From a virus (taxonomy: Duplodnaviria; Heunggongvirae; Uroviricota; Caudoviricetes): a stretch of 64,000 bases of DNA. The translations under genes were made by a program, and so were the position numbers. The DNA lies in the IMG/VR virus record IMGVR_UViG_3300001605_000025, positions 1-64,000 of that record; one strand, written 5' to 3'. This document shows positions 12,479 to 46,992 of this stretch, in pieces. The notes beneath the pieces are model-generated. The model made no database searches, was not told the origin of the DNA, and was given only the letters and a program-made list of their open reading frames with translations. Every line of letters starts with the position of its first letter. Position 1 is the stretch's first letter.

Positions 12479-13006
12479 ATGGATAGTGAACAACCTTGTC
12501 CTGTGTGTCGTGCTGGTAGTCTTGGAGCTACCATGATGCGGGACTGCCACCTTGGACGAAAGACTACATTTCAAGTTGCCGCCGAACTAGACACAACTAA
12601 CGAACTTGTGATGAAGCATATCAATGAGTCCCACGAACTAACGTTTGATGAGGACGGAGCGTTACGGTCACAAGATAGACTGATGGATGACTTACTGAAA
12701 ACGTTAAAGACACTGAAAACGTGGACGGATTATGTTGTAAATACAGTTAAGGATCCAAACCAGATCGACCGTGCTAAAGTTGATATGTTAGTCCGGTTAT
12801 CACAGGAAGCTAGAAAGACAATCGAATCGGTAGCTACTTTGCAGGGAAGAAAGGGCCCGGGAGACACACATATCCAAATGCAGATCCTGAACGGTAAGGT
12901 CGTTCTGTTGACTAATACGATTATCGATGTAGCATGTCCAGACTGTAAGATGAAGATTCTAGATGCAATTGAAGGCCAACCATTGCTTATGGAGGCTCCT
13001 AAATGA
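12479..13006 (+). CDS. terS: terminase small subunit (putative)
   Basis: 175 aa, immediately upstream of and overlapping the large terminase by 4 nt. N-terminal CPVC zinc/HTH-like region. Confidence 0.55.
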   Translation: MDSEQPCPVCRAGSLGATMMRDCHLGRKTTFQVAAELDTTNELVMKHINESHELTFDEDGALRSQDRLMDDLLKTLKTLKTWTDYVVNTVKDPNQIDRAKVDMLVRLSQEARKTIESVATLQGRKGPGDTHIQMQILNGKVVLLTNTIIDVACPDCKMKILDAIEGQPLLMEAPK

Positions 13007-14478
13007 TTGAGACAGAGTGTCAGCTGTCAAGTCACGAGACGCTAGATGGAAAGGATTACGTTCAGTACATGAGAACTGTTCTAAAAGGTAAATCAGATCC
13101 AGTTTGGTGGATAAAAGAGTATCTAGGTGTTAAATTTGAACCACACCATATAGAACAAGAGCTCGTTCTACGTCAGTGGTATCGACATCGTTACAATCCA
13201 ACACTGATACCTTATAAGAATATGTACGTATTGGCGGGAATGAGGTCTGGAAAGACAGCACTTGATAGCATGATTACATGTTATGAACTGTTTGATGTTG
13301 TGACATTACCGAAGATTCCGTGGGAGTACTATAGCTTAATACGGAATCAGTTAGTAACGTTATCGATTCTATCGATTAGTCGTGACCAGTCAGATGACGG
13401 TCTATGGGGTAACGTCCAGCAGTTCCTCGACAAGAATGCGTGGTTCGACCAGTGGACTGACCTAACTCTGAAGTCAGAAAGTGCTGATATAGCGTCTAAA
13501 CGTGTTGGAATACGTGTTCTATCATCATCTAGCAGTACAATTGTAGGACGATCTAACAGATTCGTGGGACTAGATGAGTTAGATAGTTTTGAAAATACAG
13601 AAGGGAAGCGCGGAGCATGGAAAGTATTCACGAAAATGCAAAACTCAACACAGACATTCGGCCAAGATGGCCGACTTGCTGCAATATCATCATCGAACGA
13701 CGACCCGAATTCTATTATGAATACGTTAATCAGGCAGTCAGAAGGGAAGCAGAACGTTTTAGCAATTATGAAGCCTACTTGGATTATGAATACAGCGATT
13801 TCGGAAGCGGAGCTGAGGGAGGAGTACAAGGACAATCTAGCAGGGTTCTACAGAGACTTCGCATGTATGCCAGGTATGTACACTGGAATGGAGTTCCCAG
13901 ATGGTATAAAACTAGCTGATATACCGAATGTTTTCCTGACGAAACGTTCAGACGTTCCGTATGGTCGTGTCATTGCGATAGATCCTGCAGCTAAGAATGA
14001 TGCATTTGGTGTTGCTACTGGATATCGTGCGTTCGGTCGTGTGATTGTTGATGGGGTATGTCGGTTTCAGAAAACTGGAGATGAAGTCTTTATTAATCCA
14101 GAGGATATTGACAAGTTTCTAGAAGAATGTTATAAGTATATGAACATAAGAGCTCTTGTATTTGATACATGGATGTATCCGAACATTATTCATAAGGCAG
14201 AACATGATCACGGTCTTATGTGTGTCAAACATATTGTACGGAAAGCAGAATACGATGCAGTTAAAGGTATGATTAAACAGGGAACTTTGGATGTAGTAGC
14301 AGATCCAGTGCTAAAGCGTGAGTGTGAAGGATTAAAGATTATTAACGATTTACGGGTAGATCACCCGTTACAAGGGAGTAAAGACATGGCAGATTGTGTA
14401 GCAAACGTTGTATGGTACTTAACAGAATGTGAGGTTGAACCTCAGAAGCCGAGAATCTTATTAGCGAAGGTGTTCTAA
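13003..14478 (+). CDS. terL: terminase large subunit
   Basis: Walker A LAGMRSGKT, Walker B-like VGLDELD, and C-terminal RNase H-like nuclease motif IAIDPAAKNDAFGV. Confidence 0.9.
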   Translation: MIETECQLSSHETLDGKDYVQYMRTVLKGKSDPVWWIKEYLGVKFEPHHIEQELVLRQWYRHRYNPTLIPYKNMYVLAGMRSGKTALDSMITCYELFDVVTLPKIPWEYYSLIRNQLVTLSILSISRDQSDDGLWGNVQQFLDKNAWFDQWTDLTLKSESADIASKRVGIRVLSSSSSTIVGRSNRFVGLDELDSFENTEGKRGAWKVFTKMQNSTQTFGQDGRLAAISSSNDDPNSIMNTLIRQSEGKQNVLAIMKPTWIMNTAISEAELREEYKDNLAGFYRDFACMPGMYTGMEFPDGIKLADIPNVFLTKRSDVPYGRVIAIDPAAKNDAFGVATGYRAFGRVIVDGVCRFQKTGDEVFINPEDIDKFLEECYKYMNIRALVFDTWMYPNIIHKAEHDHGLMCVKHIVRKAEYDAVKGMIKQGTLDVVADPVLKRECEGLKIINDLRVDHPLQGSKDMADCVANVVWYLTECEVEPQKPRILLAKVF

Positions 14479-17140: not shown

Positions 17141-17644
17141 ATGGCAGGCGCAACCGAAGCAACTATTATAAGTTATGGACTGGAGAATCCAGCACAAGCA
17201 ATCGCGTATACAATTCTCGAAGCCTACGCTACACCTGGTTACGTTGTGAAAGTTCACACAGTATCAGGTCAGATGACTGGAACAAACGCAATTACGGATA
17301 TCCCGGACGGTTACATCATTAAGAGTACTGTTCCTGCTACAATGCAAGCAATAGTTAACTCTGTAGAAGGTGATGCACAGACATTACAGTTTATCGGTGT
17401 TCAGGCACTTATTCCTGGACAAATCGCGTATCTGCAGCTTGCAGCCGCAACTGTAGCTGTAGCGATTGGCGACTTGCTTGGACCTACTGTAACACAAGGT
17501 TGTGTATCACCACGTTCAGCTACTGGTGTTAGAGGTGCTGGAATTGCAATTGCGAAGGCTCTTGAGGCTAAGGATGCAGCAGCTGGCGGAACGATTCGTT
17601 GTCGTATTATCCCGACTATGTACTTTGGAGCTGGATTACCATGA
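17141..17644 (+). CDS. capsid-associated protein (decoration/DUF2190-like, tentative)
   Basis: 167-aa Ala/Gly-rich protein between the scaffold and the major capsid gene. Confidence 0.35.
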   Translation: MAGATEATIISYGLENPAQAIAYTILEAYATPGYVVKVHTVSGQMTGTNAITDIPDGYIIKSTVPATMQAIVNSVEGDAQTLQFIGVQALIPGQIAYLQLAAATVAVAIGDLLGPTVTQGCVSPRSATGVRGAGIAIAKALEAKDAAAGGTIRCRIIPTMYFGAGLP

Positions 17645-18513
17645 TCAGCAAGTACTTTAGTTCTGGTTATTCAGATCGTCCGATGGAGAAGAAGGATATC
17701 ATACGGGAGCTTGTGTATCTCCAGGCTGATGAGATGCTGCCAATGAAACAGGCAGTTGTTCAGAAGCCTATTGGAGTTCTTGACTTTAAGTACGATATTC
17801 CTAAGATCACTAGGATCGCATCTCAGAAGATTGAGGAAGGGACTCGTTCTGATAGGAAACGCATGGAGTTCTGGCAGAAAGCTGTTAGCCTGGATAAGTA
17901 TCAGACAACCGTAACGATTACGGATGAAGCGAAGGTTCGACAGCTCGGTAACACCCAGACCTCGATGACTATCGATGCGGTAGCTCGTGGTATGGCTTAC
18001 GATATTGATACTGAGATTATGAATGCTCTTATTGCAGCGACTCCAACTGCAACTGCAGCAACTGCATCAGCGAAATGGAATCTATCGTCAGCATCTCCAG
18101 GGTACGATATTGCAAGCGTTCTATCGAAAATCTTCGATAACACGAACATTATGGAACAGGACCTTTCGAATGTTCAGGTGTATGTTCCGGCAAGTGTCTG
18201 GCCGTTCCTGAAATTCCCGAAGGATGTCGGATTGCTGTACACTTCCGTTAAGGACTTTATCGAGAAACAACAGGCTGTGACAATGTATCTGAGTAGAAAG
18301 TTGACTAATGGAGCTCTCGTAGTTCTTCCAGGTCAGCAGACTGCACATCACTTGACGTATAACGGAACCGAAGTCCCGACTGCTGAGAATCAGCGTGAGA
18401 TTGGTGTTGGTGAAGAGTACGTCATTACTAGGTACTACAAGACTGTTGTCATTCCGGATACTGTTTACGGAACAACTACTTCTCGGCTTGGTTGGATTTC
18501 CGTTGTTGCATAA
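17641..18513 (+). CDS. major capsid protein (HK97-fold)
   Basis: ATGA overlap start at 17641. 290 aa. Pattern EEGTRSD...VTITDEAKV resembles the E-loop/P-domain region of HK97-like MCPs. Position after protease/scaffold fits. Confidence 0.75.
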   Translation: MISKYFSSGYSDRPMEKKDIIRELVYLQADEMLPMKQAVVQKPIGVLDFKYDIPKITRIASQKIEEGTRSDRKRMEFWQKAVSLDKYQTTVTITDEAKVRQLGNTQTSMTIDAVARGMAYDIDTEIMNALIAATPTATAATASAKWNLSSASPGYDIASVLSKIFDNTNIMEQDLSNVQVYVPASVWPFLKFPKDVGLLYTSVKDFIEKQQAVTMYLSRKLTNGALVVLPGQQTAHHLTYNGTEVPTAENQREIGVGEEYVITRYYKTVVIPDTVYGTTTSRLGWISVVA

Positions 18514-19738: not shown

Positions 19739-20713
19739 ATGGGACGATATGTAAAAATCTCAACTGAGACTGAATCAACATTTGGTAACGGCACTGCAAT
19801 GCTTGCTGTTGCTAAGTTCACACCAATTCGTGTGAAGAGTATATCGAACCCTGTTGATCGTGGTCTTCTGATTGAAGAGAACATTGAAGGGTATATCCCT
19901 ACTGCTGCATATGGTGGTGCTCTGAAACTTTCCGGAACACTGGAAGGTAATCTTAGACCTAAGCAGATGGAGAACTTGATTTACTCGTTAATGGGTGCAT
20001 CGGCGGCAACGGCTGCTGGGATCCTGACGGGTATAGTCTATACGATGGCGAATCCGTTAAGTATTCAGATGAAAATTGGTGAGTCAACCACAGCAGCGAC
20101 TACCGATCTGGAACTTGGCTACATGGGTGCTGCCGTTAAGACGTTCAACATGAATGTTGCTGCGAAGGAATTCGTAACTGCACGTTTCGACTGGTTCGCT
20201 AAGAACTATACAGCTGCAAGTCCGTATAGTCCTCCAGCTTCGGGAGACTATTCAGATGAAGAACCAATTGTGTTCTATAATGCTAGTGTATCATTCGATG
20301 GTGTCGACACGAGTGCTAAGATTAAGAACATGACGATAAACATCGACCGGAAAGTTGATGAGGAACGGTATGTTATCGGAGACTACACGTTGACTGAAAT
20401 TGGTATCAACGGTATGAATGAGGTTACAGGAGACATCACGTTTACAGAACATGAGTACGGTATCTTTAGACAGGCGTTATTCGGTGCAACCACTGCATCG
20501 ACACTTGGTTGCGATGATGCTGTCGGAACAGCAGCATTCTTAGCACAATTTACGGATATTGCAGTGTGTGGTGCTGAAGCAGTTAAGATGTATGTTGAGT
20601 TCGGATCGATTAAATTCGCATCTACCGACACTACAATTAATGGTCAGAACGAGATTGAGAAGAAAGTTTCATACCGTGCCGTTGGGTACTTCGGTATCGG
20701 TGTTGCTACCTAA
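19739..20713 (+). CDS. major tail (tube) protein (putative)
   Basis: AGGAGG SD. 324 aa. Located just before the chaperone and tape measure. No sheath gene was found. Confidence 0.55.
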   Translation: MGRYVKISTETESTFGNGTAMLAVAKFTPIRVKSISNPVDRGLLIEENIEGYIPTAAYGGALKLSGTLEGNLRPKQMENLIYSLMGASAATAAGILTGIVYTMANPLSIQMKIGESTTAATTDLELGYMGAAVKTFNMNVAAKEFVTARFDWFAKNYTAASPYSPPASGDYSDEEPIVFYNASVSFDGVDTSAKIKNMTINIDRKVDEERYVIGDYTLTEIGINGMNEVTGDITFTEHEYGIFRQALFGATTASTLGCDDAVGTAAFLAQFTDIAVCGAEAVKMYVEFGSIKFASTDTTINGQNEIEKKVSYRAVGYFGIGVAT

Positions 20714-34953: not shown

Positions 34954-36437
34954 TGGCATATTACTACGTAGACTATACGAATGGTTCGGACTCTCGTACC
35001 GGATTACGTATACCTGCGGGTGACCATGATTCGGTATCTTATTATACAATCGATTCTACTGCAGATACGACACATTTTGTTGATTCAGCGTTAACTGGAG
35101 CAAACGACTACATTAACGGTGGGTACGTCTATAATGTTACACGGTCGATTGGAGCTGTAGTATCTGATTTTGATGCTGCAACTGATACGGTTACGCTAGC
35201 AACGGCAATTGCTGGAATGACTGCTGGTGACTCCTATTATATACTGAACTCGTTTAAGAATATCTCACAGTTTACAACTGCTGGATCAGCTAGAAGTCCA
35301 GGTGATAAATGTTACGTTAGAGCGAATCAGACACACAATCTAGCTTCTACATCACTAGGATTTGATGAGGATGGATCAGTAAGTGCGTTTATTTATCTGA
35401 TAGGTTGTAACGCGACTCAAGGTGTTGATCCGTATCATGATGGATCTGATGTTAGGCCGACGTTAGACTTTGGTGCTACAACAGCATACGTGCAGATATC
35501 AGGAGATTACTGGTGGTATATCCAGAATCTAGATGTTAGGGGATCAACTAGTTCTAATGGTAATATATCTCTTACTGCTGCAATTGGGACTGTTATTGAT
35601 AACTGTATGTCTAGAGATGGTGGAGCGAGCACAACTGGAATTAGAACTAGTATGACTAGAGGTATTTGGTTGATGAATTGTGTTGTCGCGAAGTGCCCGT
35701 ACTATGGAATGTATCTAATGGAGTCATATGTAGTTGTAACTAGATGTGTAATAGATGCAAATGCATCTGGGTCTTCGTATGGTATAGCTACACGTGGATC
35801 AGAAGTAATAGTTAATAATTGTATAATTGGAGCATCAACACCGTTTCTTACTGATATACACTTTAGTTATTCACATGTACTAGTTGGTAATTCTACATTA
35901 AGTAGTTCAGTTAAACTAGTTACGTTACCTGATTACGTGTTTGGTACAGGATCAACTGAGGATTATCTCGGAGTATATGGAAGTTTCTATCGCAAAGTTA
36001 GTTGTCTTGGGGTAACTAATTCAACAGCAGTTACTAGACCAGGTGGAGCATCATCAACTGTTGTTATGCAACCGTATATAACAATGTGGTATAAGAGTCC
36101 GATTAGTATAAACAATTCGATAATAAATCCAGATTTCCGTGTGTGGTCATCTGCTAACGAAAGAACGATTACCGTTTACATACGTGGGTTTAATTGGGCG
36201 TCGTTTCCGACTGCTGAACAACTATATATAAAAGCGGAATATATTTCAGCTGCTAGCCCACTAACATATAGTTCTGCTGTATCGACACAAGTACTAACAG
36301 ATAATACAACATGGGTAGCCTTTCGGGTTACTGTTACACCAGTTGTTGCGTCATTCATTAATATATGGGTTCAACTTGGACAGTTCGAAGATACATCAAC
36401 TGGTATATACGTTGATCCGAAGTTGGTGGTATCATGA
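34953..36437 (+). CDS. beta-helix (pectate-lyase-fold-like) tail spike/fibre protein, paralog 1
   Basis: N-terminus MAYYYVDYTNGSDSRTG is typical of right-handed beta-helix proteins. Repeated NC/xG-rich turns. Clear similarity to the next gene. Confidence 0.55.
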   Translation: MAYYYVDYTNGSDSRTGLRIPAGDHDSVSYYTIDSTADTTHFVDSALTGANDYINGGYVYNVTRSIGAVVSDFDAATDTVTLATAIAGMTAGDSYYILNSFKNISQFTTAGSARSPGDKCYVRANQTHNLASTSLGFDEDGSVSAFIYLIGCNATQGVDPYHDGSDVRPTLDFGATTAYVQISGDYWWYIQNLDVRGSTSSNGNISLTAAIGTVIDNCMSRDGGASTTGIRTSMTRGIWLMNCVVAKCPYYGMYLMESYVVVTRCVIDANASGSSYGIATRGSEVIVNNCIIGASTPFLTDIHFSYSHVLVGNSTLSSSVKLVTLPDYVFGTGSTEDYLGVYGSFYRKVSCLGVTNSTAVTRPGGASSTVVMQPYITMWYKSPISINNSIINPDFRVWSSANERTITVYIRGFNWASFPTAEQLYIKAEYISAASPLTYSSAVSTQVLTDNTTWVAFRVTVTPVVASFINIWVQLGQFEDTSTGIYVDPKLVVS

Positions 36438-37900
36438 CCGATTACTATATTGATTACGTTAACGGACTAAATACGAATACCGGATTACAATATAATCCGT
36501 TAACAGTTGATTCGACAGCTGATACGACACACTTAACAGATGCAGCACTCACCGGTATGACTATTGGAAACGGATCATTTGTTTGGAATGTAACACGAGG
36601 AGCTGGTGCTACAACACTAGCGTGGGATGATGGAACTGATACGTTAACACTTGGAACTGCGATTGCTGGTATGGCTGCGGGAGATTCATATTATCTGATT
36701 ACACCGTATAAAACGATATCTCAGTTCACGACAGCTGGTGGTGTACGATCTGCGGGTGATAAGTGTTATATTAGAGCAAACCAGACTCATGACTGTTCAG
36801 CTGCTAATATAGAGTTTGATGAAGATGGATCGTCTGTTGATTATATTTATCTAATTGGTTGTAACGTAAGTCAGGGTATTGATCCATGGCATGATAATTC
36901 TGATGTTAGACCCATAATAGATTTTAAGAATAGCTCAACATACTATATGTATTTGTATACTGATTATTGGTGGTATATTAAGAATTTAGACTTTACATCA
37001 ATCTATAGATCGTCTGCTGAAGCTGGAATATTATCAACTTGGGTAGTTCTTGGATTATATATTGACAATTGTCAGTTCCATAATGCTACAGGAACAGCAG
37101 CATATGCATTAAATCTAGCACGAGCAGGATGTGTTACTGTACATAATTGTGGGTTTTATTCTAATACAGGACCTGGATTATTTACAAATGAAAGTTGGGG
37201 AATTATAGAAGGATGCACATTCTCTAGTAGTGGTACTGGAACAGGTACTGGAGCAGCTTTCCGAGGAAGTGAATATATTGTAAAAGATTCAGTTTTTGGA
37301 TCACCAACTACATTTGCATATGATATACAGTCTGGGTACGGAGCGAATGTAATTCTGAGAAACTGTACAGTTAACTATAGTAAGTTTACCATTCCTGCAT
37401 TTTCATGGGGATCAATAGCAGTTGAAGATTATAATGGTGTATACGGAGATAAGTATCTAAAGACAGCTCGGGCAGTAATTACTAGTTCGACTGCTGTTAT
37501 ACGGGAAGGTGGATCACCAGAGTCTGCTTATTTAGTAGCAACATCATCTGATGTTGGTCAATATGATGCAGTAGGACTACATGATTCTATCGAACCAGAT
37601 TTTAAGATTTGGTGTACTGATACTACAACAGTTACTATTTATATGAGAGGAGCGGGATGGAGTTCCTTCCCAGTGACAACATACGACCTGTATATTACAG
37701 CTGAATATATATCTGCGACTAATCCATTAGATTATGAGTATGAGTATTCATCACAGGAATTATCTGATAATACTACATGGGTAGGTTATCAAGTTACGTT
37801 TACACCTGCTACTCCCTCGTACGTAGGAATATATGTATGTTTAGCACGGTACGTAGCTAGCACAGGTGTCTATATAGATATAGAACCAGTTATAACTTGA
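36434..37900 (+). CDS. beta-helix tail spike/fibre protein, paralog 2
   Basis: Shares long collinear blocks with 34953..36437 (DSTADTTH, TLxTAIAGMxAGDSYY, ISQFTTAG, GDKCYxRANQTH, FDEDGS, IYLIGCN, DYWWYI). Confidence 0.55.
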   Translation: MTDYYIDYVNGLNTNTGLQYNPLTVDSTADTTHLTDAALTGMTIGNGSFVWNVTRGAGATTLAWDDGTDTLTLGTAIAGMAAGDSYYLITPYKTISQFTTAGGVRSAGDKCYIRANQTHDCSAANIEFDEDGSSVDYIYLIGCNVSQGIDPWHDNSDVRPIIDFKNSSTYYMYLYTDYWWYIKNLDFTSIYRSSAEAGILSTWVVLGLYIDNCQFHNATGTAAYALNLARAGCVTVHNCGFYSNTGPGLFTNESWGIIEGCTFSSSGTGTGTGAAFRGSEYIVKDSVFGSPTTFAYDIQSGYGANVILRNCTVNYSKFTIPAFSWGSIAVEDYNGVYGDKYLKTARAVITSSTAVIREGGSPESAYLVATSSDVGQYDAVGLHDSIEPDFKIWCTDTTTVTIYMRGAGWSSFPVTTYDLYITAEYISATNPLDYEYEYSSQELSDNTTWVGYQVTFTPATPSYVGIYVCLARYVASTGVYIDIEPVIT

Positions 37901-37907
37901 GGGTATC

Positions 37908-39599
37908 ATGATAACAAGGTGGTCTAACGGTAAATTAGTTAGTACGACTGGATCAATATATGAGTGGGTTAGCGGTAGACCTGTAGTAGTTGTAATGTTG
38001 GAGCGGACAACTGTACAGAAGACATTAGTTTATGCGGTTCGTAGCACACCATCGATTACTAAAACGTTAACGTATACTATTAAGAAGTCGGTAAGCGTTC
38101 AGAAATCATTAGCATATGAGATTAGAAATACACAACCATTCATTGTAGAGAAGACATTAACGTATACTATCAGGACTATATTAACTGTACAGAAGACATT
38201 ATCTTATGCTATTAAAAAGTTGGTAAGTATACAAGACACGTTAGCTTATGTTATTAAGAATGTATATACTATCCAGAAGCCATTATCTTATGTAATCGGG
38301 ACTGTAGTTAGTATAACTAAAACGTTAAACTATTCAATTAAAAGTAACTCCAGTAAAACAGCTAGTTTAACATATGTTATTAGTAAAGTATCAACACTAA
38401 CAGAACCGTTAACATACTGTATTACTAGCAGACAAACTATTCAGATATCGTTAACGTACAATGTTCAGGTACCTTCCAGTCTAACAAAACTATTAACGTA
38501 TAGTATACTACGATCAGAAAGTATAACGAGAACATTAAGCTATACTGTTAAGTTTGTATCTAGTAAAACAATCAGTTTGACATATAGTATTACTGGAGGG
38601 TCGGCATTATCAGTTCCGTTAACGTACTACATTGCTACCGAGCAGGTTATTCAACTACCGTTAACGTATAGTATACAGTTTATTTCTAGTATAGTAGACA
38701 CGTTATCGTATAGTATAAAACGGGTAGAAGATATAACTAAGTCGTTAACCTATTCAATTACAGGTATTCCTACTAGGATACTAAGCTTAACGTATAGTAT
38801 CCACAGAGTATCAACGTTAACACACATACTAACGTATAACGTTCAGTTTACTGGCAGTAAGAATCTTGGATTAACATATATCATCGGTAACGTTCCAGTT
38901 ATACAGAAGACGTTAACATATGCTATCGGACTAACAAGTAGTCTGACAAAACAGTTAGATTATAGGATTAGAACGGTAGTGTTGAAAACACTTGAACAAG
39001 CCTATAGTATTAAATTTGTTCAATCTGTATCTAAGACCCTAACGTATGCTATTGAACGTTCAGAATCGTTGAGCATTTCATTAACCTATCGCATCAACGT
39101 TCCAACTAGTATCGCGAAATCATTAGACTACGTTATATTATCGATTACAAGTCCAACCATACAGAAGACGTTAACATACTATATTAAGAGTAGTAAGGTT
39201 GTACAGAAAACATTAACATACTGTATACCATTCAGTGTTCAGAAAACGTTAACGTTAGCGTATAGTATTGGAGTAGGTACAACAATAACTAAGTCACTGG
39301 ATTACATTATACAATCCAGTGTGGATATTCAGAGGACGTTAAGTTACGTGATTAGGGCAGCATTATCTAAAACGCTATCGTTGACATATTCTGTTCTCGG
39401 ATATGTTCCGTGGTATGAAGATATAACGTTAACGTCTTATATTATATTAGAACAAACATTTACATCTAGTATAGATATAACATATAGTATTGAATCGGAT
39501 GTCGATACCGAGTATCTGTTAGACTCTCAGATTACTAGTCTAGAGATATCACTGGAATCGATAGTAGCTATTGAATTAGAGACAGGAGGAACTATATGA
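37908..39599 (+). CDS. fibre-like protein built from about 33 tandem 14-residue repeats
   Basis: 563 aa. Consensus K-[TS]-L-[TS]-Y-x-I-x6-[QT] repeated from aa 38 to 502. Confidence 0.6.
   Translation: MITRWSNGKLVSTTGSIYEWVSGRPVVVVMLERTTVQKTLVYAVRSTPSITKTLTYTIKKSVSVQKSLAYEIRNTQPFIVEKTLTYTIRTILTVQKTLSYAIKKLVSIQDTLAYVIKNVYTIQKPLSYVIGTVVSITKTLNYSIKSNSSKTASLTYVISKVSTLTEPLTYCITSRQTIQISLTYNVQVPSSLTKLLTYSILRSESITRTLSYTVKFVSSKTISLTYSITGGSALSVPLTYYIATEQVIQLPLTYSIQFISSIVDTLSYSIKRVEDITKSLTYSITGIPTRILSLTYSIHRVSTLTHILTYNVQFTGSKNLGLTYIIGNVPVIQKTLTYAIGLTSSLTKQLDYRIRTVVLKTLEQAYSIKFVQSVSKTLTYAIERSESLSISLTYRINVPTSIAKSLDYVILSITSPTIQKTLTYYIKSSKVVQKTLTYCIPFSVQKTLTLAYSIGVGTTITKSLDYIIQSSVDIQRTLSYVIRAALSKTLSLTYSVLGYVPWYEDITLTSYIILEQTFTSSIDITYSIESDVDTEYLLDSQITSLEISLESIVAIELETGGTI
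38019..39413 (+). repeat. in-frame degenerate 42-nt (14-codon) tandem repeat array, about 33 units
   Basis: The periodic LTY/LSY motif recurs every 14 residues (a few units are 12-16). The repeats are diverged at DNA level. Confidence 0.8.
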
Positions 39600-39892
39600 C
39601 CGATGAAAGAATTTACGAAGGAGATGTTGGAGTTCGATTCTTGGTATCAACTGGAATTGATCTCACGACTACAACTGTTACTCAGTTGAAAGTAACGAAA
39701 GGTGACTTATCAACAGCAACTTGGAATGCATCCGTTAACATTGACGATAATACAGTTATGGAGTATATATCTGTTGATGGTGATTTAGATGTTTCAGGAA
39801 AGTACAAGTTATACGCTTACGTAGAATTTACTACCGACTCGAAACATTCGGGACGTGTTGCAACATTCACCGTGTACGATGTATTTAAATAG
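39596..39892 (+). CDS. small Ig-like/beta-sandwich structural protein (tentative)
   Basis: 98 aa. Pattern of alternating beta strands (GDVGVRFLV...LKVTKGD...GKYKLYAYVEF). Confidence 0.4.
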   Translation: MTDERIYEGDVGVRFLVSTGIDLTTTTVTQLKVTKGDLSTATWNASVNIDDNTVMEYISVDGDLDVSGKYKLYAYVEFTTDSKHSGRVATFTVYDVFK

Positions 39893-39907
39893 TTTCAGGG
39901 TGATGAT

Positions 39908-39940
39908 CTGAACGGTGTTCAGTGAACCTATGCGCATAGG
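39908..39940 (+). terminator. two adjacent hairpins after 39596..39892 (CTGAAC-GGT-GTTCAG and the palindrome CCTATGCGCATAGG)
   Basis: Perfect inverted repeats at 39908-39922 and 39927-39940 in the intergenic gap. No T-run follows, so the function is uncertain. Confidence 0.3.
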
Positions 39941-39957
39941 ACTAAAGGAGAATATGT

Positions 39958-40908
39958 ATGGATGTATCTTTGATTCAACCAATGGTGATGCCGATTGTAG
40001 TCGCTGCGTTCGGTATCTTTGCCGGTTTCATGTTCATATACCGGAATATGACTACGGGAGATCAGTTTTCGTTTGAGAAGTTCCTCCCTACTATGGGAGT
40101 TGGTGCTATCGCAGCACTTTTCCTGTATGCGACAGGTGGAGTATTTCCGGGTATCGATGAAGTGTTCGCTGAACTGATTATTCTTGCACCTGGTGGTGTA
40201 CCAGCAGTTGCTGCTATCTTTGCAGCTGTACTCGCGATACTGAATGGATTCGCATCGACTAAGCCTATTGTTACTGGGAAGGCTACTGTAAAACAGTCTC
40301 TGGTGGGTGTTAGGCCACTTATGTCAACCCCGACAACTGTTCCAGCTAGTAACGTTGATAGTGGTGGTATTGTAGGTACCCGCATTAAGATGGGTGACGG
40401 ACGGTATGCAATCGTTAACGGTGATGGAACGTTCACATTTGATGATGGATCGATTATCAAGTGTGACGGTACTATTGTTAAGCCTGCTGATCCTGTTCCC
40501 GTTCCGGTTCCAGATCCGACAACTGCCCCTGGGTATACGGAAGTTGGTAGTGATAATATGCCTGACAATTACGTTCCGTGGTCAGCACCCGGATTTACGG
40601 TAATGCCACCCTTTAATAAGATTAAGTCTGGTGAGACTGTTAATCTTCAGGTGTACGTCGGAATGAATAAGGATAAGAAGACTTATCCAGCACTCCAGGT
40701 ACTTTGGGGAGACGGAACTGCATTGCAGGTTGTTCCAGTTGTGAACGGACTTGCTACTGCTTCACACAGTTATACGTATGTTAAGGGAGCAGCAAAGTAT
40801 TCAGGTCGGTCGTTCTATCCTACATTTATCGTGATAGAGAACGATGGAACGGTAACGAACTTTAACACAGTACGAAAGTGTTGTGAAGTTGAAGTTCAAT
40901 CTATCTAA
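39958..40908 (+). CDS. membrane protein (about 3 N-terminal TM helices), Pro-rich linker and PKD-like C-terminal domain
   Basis: Hydrophobic segments in aa 1-100, a PADPVPVPVPDP linker, and VLWGDGTALQV...HSYTY, which is PKD-like. Confidence 0.5.
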   Translation: MDVSLIQPMVMPIVVAAFGIFAGFMFIYRNMTTGDQFSFEKFLPTMGVGAIAALFLYATGGVFPGIDEVFAELIILAPGGVPAVAAIFAAVLAILNGFASTKPIVTGKATVKQSLVGVRPLMSTPTTVPASNVDSGGIVGTRIKMGDGRYAIVNGDGTFTFDDGSIIKCDGTIVKPADPVPVPVPDPTTAPGYTEVGSDNMPDNYVPWSAPGFTVMPPFNKIKSGETVNLQVYVGMNKDKKTYPALQVLWGDGTALQVVPVVNGLATASHSYTYVKGAAKYSGRSFYPTFIVIENDGTVTNFNTVRKCCEVEVQSI

Positions 40909-42592: not shown

Positions 42593-43699
42593 CTACTTCA
42601 ACTTAACCAGATCACCGGCTAGTGTTTCTATCAGTCTATACTTAATCATATCAGCTAACTTCTCGTATACCTGTTTAGCATTCCAACCTACCATTGAACA
42701 TTCCTTAACGATATCACGTCTTGCACATGTTCCGCCGTGTAACGTAACGATGCGTCTAATCTGAACAAAGTCTAGGTTATTCGCTATGTCATCTCTCCAC
42801 ATCTTTTCATTTTGTAACAACGTTACTAGATCTGGATCCGTAACATCAAGATGCATAACAGGTTCGATCTCACGTTTCATCAGATGGTATCCAAGAATTA
42901 ACCGATTGAAGTAACTCGATTCAAAACTATATATATCCATCTCATGGTACAACTTCAGTATTGAGTCGTCAAATTCGATCTTGTTAATCGTATCCATCTG
43001 GTGTACTTGATCGTCGATGTTACTCCACAACACAGACATAGCTTGTGGATTCGGTCTTACATTTTGTGTCCGATGCATGATATCCATCAACGCTATATTA
43101 TCAGCATACGTAGGTAGGAATACCATAAAGATCAGTCTACGCCCTAACCCAGAACTAAGATCATAACTTCCAGGCTGAATTCCAGCCCACATCGATAGAT
43201 TCGTCTGATAGGCTATAGCTCCAGACGATAATCGTTTGAACACTCGTCCGTGATCTAACGCTGCTAACAGTTGTGTTTCCATCTGACTATTCATCTGATT
43301 CTTTAAGGCATCAGATATCGCTTTAAACTCATCAATTAACAACAGTCCATCTTTATTCAGTTCTGCAGCTCCAGGATTATTAATGCCTAAACCGTTAACC
43401 GACACGACAGTTCCAACAAAACCGGCTTCAGTCATTGACTGTTCACTAGCAATCTGGATCTCCGTCCCGTGAAAGATACCATGTGGATCAGCAGCCATAG
43501 TCTGGAGATAGTAAGTCTTCATAAACCCAGGTGGAGCTACAAATAGTAAGTGGCATCGCATATTCGGTAACTGCTTACCAGCATAGTATATCTCCCGTTT
43601 CTGGTTCATCAGATTGAACGCATGAACAGCATAGCTACAGGTAAAGTATGGAGCGTAGATCTCCCGTTTGTAAGCTTGCCGATCAGCAAGTTCACTCAT
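42593..43699 (-). CDS. MCM-like AAA+ ATPase (putative replicative helicase core)
   Basis: LLFVAPPGFMKT (Walker A-like), LLLIDEFKAISD (Walker B), QLLAALDHGRV...NLSMWAGIQP and GLGRRLIF are collinear with the MCM motifs (IDEFDKM, MEQQ, NAR..AAANP, SRFDL). Confidence 0.55.
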   Translation of the reverse strand: MSELADRQAYKREIYAPYFTCSYAVHAFNLMNQKREIYYAGKQLPNMRCHLLFVAPPGFMKTYYLQTMAADPHGIFHGTEIQIASEQSMTEAGFVGTVVSVNGLGINNPGAAELNKDGLLLIDEFKAISDALKNQMNSQMETQLLAALDHGRVFKRLSSGAIAYQTNLSMWAGIQPGSYDLSSGLGRRLIFMVFLPTYADNIALMDIMHRTQNVRPNPQAMSVLWSNIDDQVHQMDTINKIEFDDSILKLYHEMDIYSFESSYFNRLILGYHLMKREIEPVMHLDVTDPDLVTLLQNEKMWRDDIANNLDFVQIRRIVTLHGGTCARRDIVKECSMVGWNAKQVYEKLADMIKYRLIETLAGDLVKLK

Positions 43700-43722
43700 G
43701 ATCTGATCGTAAATTGATTTCG

Positions 43723-44355
43723 TTAGAATCTCTCCTTTAACGTTCTTCTTATCTGAATTGATTTCGCTGGACCAATTCCACGAACTCTCTGTAAATCTTT
43801 ATCTGGAACGTTTGCGATATTTGTTAAACAATTATGAGTCATCATTAATTGTGTCAGTTGTGCTGTTGAGATTCCAAGTAAACGTGCTGCCAGTATCGTG
43901 CGATCTCTTCTAACGGGAACATTATACTTTCCCTCATCAACTTTCTTCATGAACTTAACTAACGTGATCATACCTTCCCATTCGTTCTCTACCCATAACG
44001 GTTGAATACCGTACCGGCAGGCTATCGATGCGATCTCTCCGAAGAGAATATCTGGATCGATTGTTATCCCGATATCTCGCATATTCTTAACGTAAGGTGC
44101 TATAGCGCCTGTGATAAGCAGAATCTGGACTTTATCTTGGTGGACAGATATTCGTTCAATCTGATCGTGTATTCTACGATTAGGGCCTGTGATACTTCCA
44201 TACAAGTCTGCAATTGTCTTACGTTCAGCCAAACACCGTTCCGATTGGTAATCTCCTTCGTCTAGTTTAATCCTCCTGAACTTCATTTCCGGGAACTTCT
44301 TAGTTAAAAAGTCATAGTACTTTGGTGGCTCTCTTGTATCTACGTCGACTGGCAT
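43723..44355 (-). CDS. ERCC4/XPF-Mus81-Hef-type nuclease with C-terminal helix-hairpin-helix
   Basis: GDY...ERKTIADLYGSI is the ERCC4 signature GDxnERKx3D. C-terminal LQRVRGIGPAKSIQI is an HhH motif. Confidence 0.6.
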   Translation of the reverse strand: MPVDVDTREPPKYYDFLTKKFPEMKFRRIKLDEGDYQSERCLAERKTIADLYGSITGPNRRIHDQIERISVHQDKVQILLITGAIAPYVKNMRDIGITIDPDILFGEIASIACRYGIQPLWVENEWEGMITLVKFMKKVDEGKYNVPVRRDRTILAARLLGISTAQLTQLMMTHNCLTNIANVPDKDLQRVRGIGPAKSIQIRRTLKERF

Positions 44356-44594
44356 GGTATCGTTCCGCCTATCATTAGTTCCTCGTCACACCGTTTACAT
44401 CTACAGAGTACCTCGTAACGTACGGCTCCAACAATAACCTTCTTTAAAACAAAATCTGTAGGGTCCTCAGACCATATGCTAATTGGTTTCTCCATTATAT
44501 CACGATGAACTGTAACATCTAGAACGACCAGTTGATCAGCTGGATGTTTACAGTTTACTGCAGGATCTATTCCAACTATACTAGTTTCAGGCAC
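44340..44594 (-). CDS. hypothetical Cys-containing protein
   Basis: 84-aa ORF containing CRCKRC. Confidence 0.4.
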   Translation of the reverse strand: MPETSIVGIDPAVNCKHPADQLVVLDVTVHRDIMEKPISIWSEDPTDFVLKKVIVGAVRYEVLCRCKRCDEELMIGGTIPCQST

Positions 44595-44595
44595 G

Positions 44596-44811
44596 TTATC
44601 CCTCTCGGAAAACTTTTCGTTCTATCATCATTCGAATAGCTTCTAGTGCTGGAGATATCTCTACCCAGTCTCCAGAAAAATAGCTGGTTGGTAAGTTTGC
44701 TTTATCGCAATATGAATCAAACAGTTCAGACTTCTGCATCCATTCATGTTCTGTGTCCAGAAGCTCTAAAAATTGGACTAACGTTAGATTAGTTTCTTTC
44801 CCTTCCGACAT
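44596..44811 (-). CDS. hypothetical protein
   Basis: 71-aa ORF. Confidence 0.4.
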   Translation of the reverse strand: MSEGKETNLTLVQFLELLDTEHEWMQKSELFDSYCDKANLPTSYFSGDWVEISPALEAIRMMIERKVFREG

Positions 44812-45563
44812 ACCGACACCACGTCATGCTGATGAATTGATTCCTGATGTGTACAGACGACTACCCAATCTTCCATCCATCCATCGATCGTTGCACCGAT
44901 CACTCTTGAAGCATCCTCGACAAACAGATTCGTTCGGGCGGCTCGCTGACACCAATCTAGTTCGTCCGGTCTCTTCATCAACGGTATAGGAACAATGTCT
45001 ACCACTTCGATGATCCGTGCTACAATTGATGTCATTAGATCGTCCAGGTCCTCCTTCGGCGATAACAATCCAGTTACCTGTGCTAAAGCTCGCTGCATAT
45101 GAGGAACCCCTCCTTCTTGTTTCACCATTCTCATGGCACATGGGCACACACTCGCATACGGAACTTTCATAGTCAGATACCAATCTTCTTTATCGGGTAC
45201 ACGGACACCTTCTAACATACTATCTATAAAGATCAATTGTTCGTTCTCCATCTCATATGCTGCTGTCCAATTACATTCCCAGTAACTGTTAGTCGTTTCA
45301 TGTCCTTCAGCTAACGTTTCTAATAATTCTGAGTTCATATAAATCGGATCGTCCTCGTAATCTGTTAACGCATCAACTAATCGTGACATATGAACACCAG
45401 TCCGATCGATCAGATCAACATAAGCAGACTGACTTGTTAACGTTCGTCGTCCGCTAAAGTCTTGCATAAACTGTTTGAATCCTTTAATACCAACTTTCTC
45501 TAGTGGCATACCACCAGACGGACCTTCAGCATAGTCAGGTAACAATCGTACACATGAATCCAT
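44784..45563 (-). CDS. folE2: GTP cyclohydrolase I type 2 (FolE2/MptA family)
   Basis: AAGGAG SD before ATG at 45563 (track ORF trimmed). GVHMSRLV and SVCPCAM...PHMQRA match the FolE2 motifs (HMSR, CPC, HxQR). Confidence 0.7.
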   Translation of the reverse strand: MDSCVRLLPDYAEGPSGGMPLEKVGIKGFKQFMQDFSGRRTLTSQSAYVDLIDRTGVHMSRLVDALTDYEDDPIYMNSELLETLAEGHETTNSYWECNWTAAYEMENEQLIFIDSMLEGVRVPDKEDWYLTMKVPYASVCPCAMRMVKQEGGVPHMQRALAQVTGLLSPKEDLDDLMTSIVARIIEVVDIVPIPLMKRPDELDWCQRAARTNLFVEDASRVIGATIDGWMEDWVVVCTHQESIHQHDVVSVCRKGKKLI

Positions 45564-45564
45564 A

Positions 45565-45738
45565 CTACTGCTCCTTTGGGTTCTTCCAGTTACCAAATAC
45601 AGTCTCAAGAACAGCTGCTGAATATGGATGTGTATTACATGAATTATGAAGTAGCTGTTGGTCACAGCTTATAGCTCGTAACGCCTCTCCAATTGCATCT
45701 ACTTTCTGTTCAAGTCTTTTAAAGTCTTTAGTAGTCAT
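45565..45738 (-). CDS. small protein inside the deazaguanine cluster (57 aa, hand-called)
   Basis: TAATG overlap with the queE stop. Ends 2 nt before the folE2 start. Confidence 0.35.
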   Translation of the reverse strand: MTTKDFKRLEQKVDAIGEALRAISCDQQLLHNSCNTHPYSAAVLETVFGNWKNPKEQ

Positions 45739-46385
45739 TATCTCACCTTATACAGTACATGAAGTCTCGGGCTTACGGCTCCGTTAACTCCATATTCATC
45801 CATCATACGAATAATCTCACGAACCATTCTATTATGTTCCGTTATCATCGTATCGTCCTGGGGAGTCATCGGCATAAAGTACATTCTCACTTCAGAGTGT
45901 TCAGTTGCCCATTTCATCCACCATCTAATATTCTCATACCTAATAACTGGTTTAATAACTACATCTACTTCACAAATGTTAGTCCACAACGTTAATAGAT
46001 CGGTCAGTCCAGAAGTAGGTAGTTCACTATCTTTCGGACTAACAACTACCAGATCGAACGCAGCAACACCAAACGGTATCGTTCCATTCGTTTCGATAGC
46101 ATGTGTCATACCTAACGATTCAACTGAAGCGATCGTATCCTTTATCTCATCAACCTGGAGTCCAGGTTCTCCACCAGTCCAGACAACGTTCCTCACTCCT
46201 TTCTTATATGCTTTAGTAATCAGGCTTTTTAGTTCAGTCCGACTAACATTAATATACAGTGTTGCGTATTTCGTATCACAAAAAGGACAATGAAGATTAC
46301 AGCCCGATAGTCTTATAAACAACGACCGTACTCCAGCTTGTGGACCTTCACCCTGAATCGATATAAACGTTTCGTTTAGTCTCAT
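45738..46385 (-). CDS. queE: 7-carboxy-7-deazaguanine synthase (radical SAM QueE)
   Basis: FISIQGEGPQAGVRSLFIRLSGCNLHCPFCDTKY carries the CX3CX2C cluster motif and the QueE N-terminal signature. Confidence 0.85.
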   Translation of the reverse strand: MRLNETFISIQGEGPQAGVRSLFIRLSGCNLHCPFCDTKYATLYINVSRTELKSLITKAYKKGVRNVVWTGGEPGLQVDEIKDTIASVESLGMTHAIETNGTIPFGVAAFDLVVVSPKDSELPTSGLTDLLTLWTNICEVDVVIKPVIRYENIRWWMKWATEHSEVRMYFMPMTPQDDTMITEHNRMVREIIRMMDEYGVNGAVSPRLHVLYKVR

Positions 46386-46816
46386 TGTAACCCTCTCTCA
46401 GGAGTCCACGTGACGGTAGCCTTACTAACATCATTCTCCCATACCGTCACACTAACCATTGTTAGTGGTCCAAGTTTCCAGTTGTACACATCCATCACAC
46501 TATTACAAAGTAACGTTGCAATATTTTCGCATGTTGGATTCTCTCTCGTTGGATATACTAGTTGATTACACGATCTAAGTATCTGAACTAACGGATCAGA
46601 TTCTTTCAGTATCACTTTATGATCCATACCATCCGTTAGTCTTTTAAGTACCGTAAAGTTCTCGAGGTACCCAACAGAGTTAACTTTGTCACCCTGTAAG
46701 ACAAAATCTACTTTCCAATTATGCCCATGTAAGAATCCACATTTCGAATCATCACCATACTGTCTATGTGCAGCTTCAAAATCGACAGACGTCTGTATCG
46801 TAACCATGATGTTCAC
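46382..46816 (-). CDS. queD: 6-carboxytetrahydropterin synthase (QueD/PTPS family)
   Basis: FEAAHRQYGDDSKCGFLHGHNWKV is the PTPS His/Cys motif. 144 aa. 4-nt overlap with queE. Confidence 0.85.
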   Translation of the reverse strand: MNIMVTIQTSVDFEAAHRQYGDDSKCGFLHGHNWKVDFVLQGDKVNSVGYLENFTVLKRLTDGMDHKVILKESDPLVQILRSCNQLVYPTRENPTCENIATLLCNSVMDVYNWKLGPLTMVSVTVWENDVSKATVTWTPERGLQ

Positions 46817-46821
46817 CTAAA

Positions 46822-46992
46822 AATTTAGTGCCTGGTAACTACAGGTACTTGTTCACACTGTCTAACGATAGTCCCATTAGTTCCAGTTTTCTTATAATCA
46901 GTGCAATACATTTGAGGTCCATGTAACACTTTGAGTGCTGCTGGACATTTTCTAGCTCTCGATACGTTGACACATTTAACAATTTCTTTCAT
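46822..46992 (-). CDS. small Cys-rich protein (56 aa, hand-called)
   Basis: ATGA overlap with the upstream stop. Begins MKEIVKCVNVSRARKCP. Confidence 0.35.

Follow-up and report, generated by a model that had tools for sequence, protein, structure and literature searches.

Few fibrous β-repeat folds, among them the triple β-spiral and the triple β-helix, have been described, and each has explained how long and stable attachment organelles are built and has given engineers a scaffold. The triple β-spiral consists of repeats of ~15 residues with hydrophobic side chains at positions c, e, g, k and m and either Pro or Gly occupying turn position j (PMC3150272). Lactococcal siphophages carry accessory fibres tipped with carbohydrate-binding modules (CBMs), and their NPS is a non-essential collar with fibres (PMC6669499). 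Here we analyse a repeat protein of 563 amino acids (aa), taken from the list of open reading frames (ORFs) of a 64,000-nt stretch of viral DNA (positions 1 to 64,000 of the Caudoviricetes record IMGVR_UViG_3300001605_000025 in IMG/VR; hereafter the window). Most of this protein is an array of tandem 14-residue units. We judge it somewhat better than even that the product of this gene is a structural component of the virion, namely the bare form of a modular family of phage surface stalks that has not been described before.

Anchored on its L-x-Y core, the array comprises 34 units between residues ~37 and ~505. A preliminary description of this DNA had placed about 33 repeats at 38019-39413 (aa 38-502), which is the same array, and had it fill most of the protein. 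Successive units are 14 residues apart in 28 cases, 15 in one, 16 in two and 17 in one, with a single interval of 28 running over a degenerate unit. Thus, of the 12-16-residue range proposed previously, the variable unit length holds and the 12-residue units do not, since the main array contains spacings of 14-17 only. Sequence identity at lags of 14, 28, 42 and 56 residues amounted to 0.29-0.32, whereas 500 shuffles never exceeded 0.16. A strong signal of period 2 overlies the 14-residue period.

The unit profile reads [T/Q]1-K2-T3-L4-T5-Y6-x7-I8-x9-x10-x11-x12-S13-I14, in agreement with the K-T-L-T-Y-x-I consensus given in the preliminary description. Leucine at position 4 and tyrosine at position 6 are invariant (100% each). 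They are flanked by T (39%) or Q (35%) at position 1, K (46%; L or I in 24%) at position 2, T (50%) or S (25%) at position 3, T (64%) at position 5, I (85%) or V (14%) at position 8, S (50%) or T (25%) at position 13, and I (46%) or L (21%) at position 14; most units contain T3-L4-T5. Along an extended strand, I14, K/L2, L4, Y6 and I8 fall on one, hydrophobic face, and S13, T1, T3, T5 and S7 on the other, which is mostly hydroxyl. The units of this protein hold no conserved glycine or proline (G 14% at position 9; P 7% and G 7% at position 11; P 10% at position 12).

At the nucleotide level the repeats have diverged, as had been claimed: Tandem Repeats Finder reported nothing in the DNA of the gene, even at a score of 30, and the 42-nt units share a mean pairwise identity of 48% (maximum 71%). 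The unit is conserved at 24-36% identity across hundreds of metagenomic viral proteins, which argues that the array is old and under selection and bears out the earlier suggestion to that effect. Ten metagenomic contigs, the longest of 75 kb and drawn from several samples, encode the identical protein. As a separate observation, GC content drops to 0.347 across the gene (window positions 38001-40000) from ~0.40-0.43 elsewhere in the window, and Leu4 is encoded by TTA in 24 of 28 units; a codon content rich in T, K, S, L, Y and I, or a separate acquisition of the gene, may account for this.

The array is flanked by short termini. The N-terminus matched no Pfam or PHROG family and lacks a duplicated ‘LLQE(N/D)GD’ motif that opens other bare arrays, and the Pro/Tyr/Lys-rich tail with which family members typically end is missing from its C-terminus (see below for both). 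We also considered whether the protein might be a ‘decapitated’ lectin-array fusion that had kept a MARLWxSGFEL start, and found no support for this, the resemblance not being significant (hidden Markov model E = 5.8).

It is well supported that each unit consists of a single amphipathic β-strand, ~10 residues long and extending from position 13 to position 8, and a variable loop (positions 9-12), because secondary structure prediction, residue couplings and the placement of indels coincide. AlphaFold2 (AF2) modelled the monomer as 10-residue strands separated by 4-5-residue loops, the weak overall model (pLDDT 51) being a β-solenoid. Mutual information calculated over ~1900 units and compared with within-protein shuffles revealed strong i,i+2 couplings along positions 13-1-3-5-7 (z up to 20), plus loop couplings at positions 9-12, and it is to positions 9-12 that family-wide unit variation and all indels are confined. 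The same analysis returned no anti-diagonal (i + j constant) couplings of the kind left by hairpins, so a β-hairpin meander was rejected. A weak coupling signal at lag 3 (position 7, z = 6) raised the possibility of a three-unit, 42-residue super-period; unit similarity is elevated at lags 3-5 and not at 6 or 9, so this signal is better explained by duplication of blocks of 3-5 units, and the super-period was discarded. Mean-field direct coupling analysis on three-unit windows was uninformative, being dominated by the invariant tyrosine and by same-position lineage effects, and mutual information was used in its place.

Of the possible structures, only a β-rich rod or solenoid fits these data. 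Modelling a 12-unit fragment with a deeper, in-register alignment worsened the AF2 prediction (pLDDT 38.5). The preliminary description had proposed a fibre shaft or a long β-solenoid; the β-rich rod or solenoid stands, and the monomer models, at such low confidence, do not settle the choice between the two, so that the solenoid picture is a guess.

To place the protein among its relatives, we turned to metagenomic sequence. A word-indexed search returned 36 homologues at 24-36% identity, and an exhaustive HMMER search of 1.84 billion representatives expanded these to 330 clusters (at 50% identity) with E ≤ 1e-3, 184 of them with E ≤ 1e-10. The longest of the family proteins has 2446 aa, and in almost all of them the array is C-terminal. 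A DNA pattern of three consecutive T-K-x-L-x-Y units hit 54 stretches in IMG/VR; 51 loci (46 non-redundant), with 9-71 units each, turned out to be genuine. Among 185,579 species genomes, a single one of 24 pattern matches was genuine, and it lies on a 39-kb contig binned in a Moraniibacteriota metagenome-assembled genome; the other 23 were false and were rejected, for example an Anoxybacillus coiled-coil repeat of 42 nt read in a different frame. This imbalance argues for a viral origin of the family. A search for related loci with the non-repeat peptides of one member (P0012), aimed at hosts via prophages, gave nothing.

The family consensus is T-K-S-L-x-Y-x-V-x4-[S/A]-I. Units of 15 residues read ...T-T-P-S-A-I, with proline in 56% at a fixed loop position; in family 14-mers, proline occupies position 11 in 12%. 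By sequence and by profile, the array was unmatched in Pfam, NCBIfam and PDB apart from weak matches of some relatives to the Pfam family YTV (PF07639), PHROGs yielded noise-level matches only, and tblastn with three family members against 50,697 deposited phage genomes produced zero matches. Judging by these searches, the family appears to be undescribed in the databases covered and to be known from metagenomes alone, and the earlier view of an unclassified repeat type is upheld for the window protein, which itself matched nothing in Pfam, NCBIfam or PDB.

Most members share a modular architecture, in which a variable N-terminal globular region of 300-700 aa precedes the array and a short Pro/Tyr/Lys-rich tail follows it. 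Recognisable N-terminal partners include Laminin_G_3, CBM96/DNRLRE, CBM_4_9, MAM, P_proprotein and fn3, that is, lectin- or CBM-like β-sandwiches or propellers. Most arrays end PY/K-rich, as in the tail YKKKxSPYTKKxxPY. Many viral members are bare arrays that begin with a duplicated LLQE(N/D)GDxILLE motif. This duplicated ~12-residue motif, LLQE(N/D)GDxxLLQE(N/D)GDxILL(D/E), opens the bare arrays of eight loci (L037, L040, L042, L047, L050, L064, L066 and L075) and of proteins P0098, P0165, P0168, P0172 and P0174, and recurs after the first array in L047, L060, L064 and L079. The LLQE motif and the PY/K tail may be virion-anchoring elements, both of which the window protein lacks.

The gene context of these relatives falls into two types. 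In P0001, P0005, P0009 and about two-thirds of the IMG/VR loci, the gene sits between those for the major capsid protein and the head-tail adaptor. Upstream neighbours there are Phage_capsid, prohead protease and cement protein genes, and downstream ones phrog_442 head-tail adaptors (25), phrog_5 Neck1/tail completion proteins (20) and HK97-gp10_like proteins (14). In the window, in the related contig L009 (protein P0033) and in P0029, the gene instead lies at the distal end of the tail block; a position after the tape-measure gene was also seen among relatives. L009 further encodes, 4 nt upstream of its array gene, a separate 207-aa protein that is lectin-like (ConA/LamG type) by eye, as though the fusion present in other members had been split into two genes. 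At L009 2922-5388, downstream of the array gene and its small partner, lie two genes of 249 aa and 586 aa, and the second bears a faint CBM_4_9 annotation. By eye, both seem to contain isolated repeat-like segments (such as IPIEYNV...TPLGYI and IPLEYDV...CGYKV) that the automated chain scan did not flag; if real, they would mean that short arrays are spread across several fibre proteins in this lineage.

The window represents a siphovirus-type genome with its structural genes, including a probable portal gene, on the + strand (Table 1). Within its tail module, the repeat gene lies 3′ of the genes for the tube, the tape-measure-like, the PKD/CBM and the β-helix proteins and 19 kb downstream of the capsid gene. 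The order of the distal tail genes is a CBM_4_9-like protein, a PKD/discoidin protein, two β-helix proteins, the repeat protein, and then small and membrane proteins. Between the capsid and tube genes, where relatives commonly carry the family gene, the window has only ORFs of 138, 150 and 122 aa.

Table 1 Features of the window that bear on the repeat protein and its surroundings.
Feature	Position	Strand	Basis
TerL	13003-14478	+	
Major capsid protein	17599-18513	+	Phage_capsid_4
Tail tube protein	19739-20713	+	
Tape-measure-like protein, 2379 aa	21250-28389	+	
Four-unit mini-array, aa ~15-66 of PKD/discoidin-like tail protein (ORF 31778-33175)	31820-31975	+	chain scan
Two right-handed β-helix proteins, 494 and 488 aa	34953-36437, 36434-37900	+	Pfam Beta_helix E = 7.5e-07, 8.6e-10
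Repeat protein, 563 aa (ORF, stop included)	37908-39599	+	ORF list; same protein on 10 metagenomic contigs
N-terminal 36 aa before the array, no domain recognised	37908-38015	+	Pfam/PHROG scans
Array of ~34 tandem 14-residue units, aa 37-505	38016-39422	+	periodicity, unit profile, AF2 secondary structure, couplings
C-terminal ~58 aa, degenerate, acidic, Lys-free repeat continuation (‘VPWYEDITLTS...’)	39423-39596	+	sequence; alignment to P0033 C-terminus
98-aa partner gene, overlaps the repeat-gene stop (ATGA)	39596-39892	+	36% identity to L009 counterpart

Both ORFs immediately upstream match Pfam Beta_helix, so the preliminary description was right to place the gene after two β-helix proteins. 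They are paralogues (43% identical over their full length, E = 9e-126), whose N- and C-terminal regions are conserved and whose central β-helix has diverged. Such a pattern is as expected of duplicated spikes with different glycan specificities, and the two proteins are probably glycan-degrading or glycan-binding spikes.

Downstream, the 98-aa ORF is 36% identical (E = 2e-18) to a gene of 95-97 aa that overlaps the stop of the P0033 array gene (L009 2625-2918). Array gene and small overlapping ORF therefore form a conserved pair, kept in the window and in L009. The partner matched neither Pfam nor PHROG families. It is β-rich, and its role may be that of an assembly chaperone or of a distal cap. 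A suspected paralogy between it and a 105-aa ORF was rejected on comparison.

The PKD/discoidin-like tail protein, which matches PKD and F5/8-C in Pfam, contains a mini-array of its own. Its chain IEYPL / LTYRV / LRYDI / LEYRF, with spacings of 12, 14 and 12, is four units long, a length that never arose when all other ORFs of the window were shuffled (300 shuffles). The repeat unit is thus common to at least two tail proteins of this virus and is possibly a common attachment or co-assembly element of tail proteins.

How might such a protein act? If it is a surface stalk, the strands of successive units would pack laterally into a stack that buries their hydrophobic faces, giving a long and stiff β-sheet rod that might be a solenoid-like single chain or, about equally likely, several packed chains. 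At a strand stacking of 4.8 Å this rod would measure ~8-16 nm, and it would be longer if it formed a spiral. In the fused members it would serve as a spacer that keeps sugar-binding modules off the particle, mounted on the head, the neck or the tail, and bare forms may themselves adhere through a hydroxyl-rich, multivalent surface or act as a rod on which binding proteins encoded by separate genes dock. In the virus studied here, the array, whose gene closes the block of tail genes, would be co-expressed with the two β-helix spikes and the conserved 98-aa partner. This grouping suggests that it most likely belongs to the adsorption apparatus, where it would aid reversible binding to a host surface polysaccharide.

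We infer the virion location, the oligomeric state and the ligand of the window protein, for which ‘tail fibre shaft’ is a plausible label. The former designation ‘tail protein’ is putative: its basis is the position of the gene in the window, and in some two-thirds of related viral loci the gene lies in the head module. For that reason, we regard the array as a portable virion-surface stalk and not specifically as a tail-fibre shaft.

Several observations weigh against the stalk interpretation. The lysine conserved throughout the family at position 2 shares the phase of the presumed buried face, and the AF2 monomer models are of low confidence. Over the ~1900 units, same-position couplings at lag 1 or 2, which stacked coils or hairpins would predict, were not detected. 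No cultured phage among the deposited genomes searched carries the family, and the evidence for a presence in virions is indirect. The window copy has neither a lectin domain nor the PY tail, and given the usual head-module slot of the family, the tail location in this virus is an assumption.

That last point leads to the first alternative, namely that the protein decorates the head or neck here as in most relatives, as a Hoc-like head fibre or a collar whisker, with its gene merely located at the end of the late operon. The canonical slot of the family, which has the major capsid protein gene on one side and the head-tail adaptor and Neck1 genes on the other, fits this view. So does the polarity of the fused members, in which the binding domain is N-terminal and variable and the C-terminal part conserved: this is the reverse of typical tail fibres and resembles T4 Hoc, which binds the capsid by its C-terminus. 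A late-operon position would have a precedent, too, as the neck-whisker NPS gene of the lactococcal phage TP901-1 lies at the end of the tail module. In the window, however, the gene is far removed from the capsid gene and stands among PKD/CBM and β-helix adsorption genes, its repeat unit reappears in another tail protein as the mini-array, and L009 shows the same tail-cluster placement. Moreover, the window copy is devoid of the PY tail, which may be the family’s anchor to capsid or neck. We therefore consider a head or neck location of this particular protein doubtful.

A second alternative retains the stalk and changes its build. Here, the array would be an obligate homotrimeric, interwoven shaft, akin to a triple β-spiral or a triple-stranded β-helix rather than a single-chain solenoid, in which each 14-mer contributes a rung of ~13 Å to a fibre of ~40 nm. 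Like the shafts of the adenovirus fibre and reovirus σ1, the array is built from short tandem repeats with spaced hydrophobic residues, its positions 4, 6, 8, (12) and 14 corresponding to c, e, g, k and m of the β-spiral. The proline of the family 15-mers falls at the equivalent of the β-turn residue j, and single σ1 repeats tolerate the loss of glycine or proline (PMC3150272). AF2 monomer prediction fails on both, a failure that, in the face of a regular in-register alignment, is typical of interwoven fibres; the lack of inter-unit covariation within the chain points the same way.

On the other hand, the period of the array is 14 and not 15, position j of the window protein holds neither conserved glycine nor proline, and position k (= 12) is weakly hydrophobic (0.29-0.36). 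T-K-S, the most conserved polar segment, would come to lie at the variable, exposed n-o-a-b loop of the β-spiral and the indel-prone segment at h-k, and the i,i+2 couplings pass straight through T1-S3 as in one continuous strand. In addition, none of the members scanned matched Pfam Adeno_shaft or Reo_sigma1, and there was no sequence match in PDB. Taken together, we deem a trimeric shaft of this kind rather unlikely. As to the earlier contrast with adenovirus, the absence of Gly/Pro turns is confirmed for the window protein and does not extend to the proline-bearing family 15-mers; the contrast is also less sharp than claimed because the hydrophobic spacing is that of the triple β-spiral.

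The third alternative, that the protein is not new and simply belongs to YTV, a Planctomycetes repeat family without known structure or function (PMC8078820), is very improbable: one relative (P0028) passes the YTV threshold (25 bits versus a cut-off of 21), two of 59 further relatives match (E down to 7e-6) and the model length of 43 approximates three 14-mers, yet the window protein had no YTV match at E ≤ 0.1, the local and weak matches span 25 residues and involve three of ~70 relatives scanned (<5%), and a precomputed PF07639 annotation was attached to one of 53 homologue-search matches. Membership would also explain little, as neither structure nor function of YTV is known.

A bolder version of the preferred surface-stalk reading can be put forward tentatively, as a possibility that falls clearly short of probable. 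The unit would then define a new fibrous fold, a β-structure that necessarily involves several chains, is neither a triple β-spiral nor a triple-stranded β-helix and is marked by a conserved Lys-Tyr ladder; it would act as a universal plug-in lectin stalk for heads or tails of uncultured phages, and the bare, Thr/Ser-faced forms would be adhesins themselves. That AF2 could not model the monomer confidently makes the array a good candidate for a new fibre architecture. A stalk that is fused to many lectin and CBM heads and is found in head or tail gene blocks could help to annotate genes for host adhesion in viral dark matter, and could be an entry to how environmental phages use accessory glycan binding.

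Outside the repeat gene and its neighbours, several features of the window deserve mention. Around aa 550-730, the tape-measure-like ORF matches YpsA/SLOG (E = 4.5e-32) and also contains a DprA-like domain, a nucleotide-binding-type insert that is unusual in a tape-measure protein. A replication and DNA-modification block occupies the − strand. Its segment at ~42593-46900, also found in L001-L003, encodes an MCM-like P-loop protein, an ERCC4 nuclease, a type-2 GTP cyclohydrolase I (GCHY-1), a QueE-like radical SAM enzyme and PTPS (QueD); RNase H and ribonucleotide reductase come next. By gene content, this segment appears to be a 7-deazaguanine DNA-modification pathway, and the combination of MCM and ERCC4 hints at an archaeal host. 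The sign of the GC skew flips near 12 kb and 42 kb, at the strand switches between the − early/replication blocks and the + structural block. The nearest TerL relatives are terminases of Microcystis and Pseudomonas jumbo phages, at only ~22% identity, and a search for the nearest isolate with the capsid protein found no match; the virus would thus seem very distant from any isolate.

With respect to other described structures, cross-β solenoids such as curli CsgA, the SufBD/SufD β-helix and the pectate-lyase-type tailspikes differ from the array, which shows no coil-to-coil covariation and whose models are of low confidence; in unit length and sequence it is unrelated to the Curlin and Beta_helix repeats, and two 14-mers per coil would put the conserved lysine in the core. 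Among β-solenoids, the antifreeze or ice-binding proteins carry T-x-T ladders on repeats of 12 (Tenebrio), 15 (spruce budworm) or 14/15 residues (Lolium). The array resembles them in its repeat length, within the range of 12-15 residues, and in a flat, ordered Thr/Ser face, here formed by the mostly hydroxyl positions 13, 1, 3, 5 and 7.

In functional terms, the family may be likened to the decorations, tipped with CBMs, that lactococcal siphophages bear on collar and tail. NPS collar fibres, evolved Dit and TpeX, as well as T4 Hoc, are likewise dispensable-looking, modular surface fibres that present lectins or CBMs; their genes sit in head, neck or tail modules, and their binding modules are swapped between phages (PMC6669499). 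Unlike these, the family has a β-repeat stalk in place of a coiled coil or Ig domains, an N-terminal binding domain and no BppU-like collar domain, and the window copy is without a CBM. As far as its sequences tell, the array thus appears to fall within a known kind, the β-repeat fibres and stalks of viruses, as a real, non-random and sizeable family of phage structural proteins known so far from metagenomes only.

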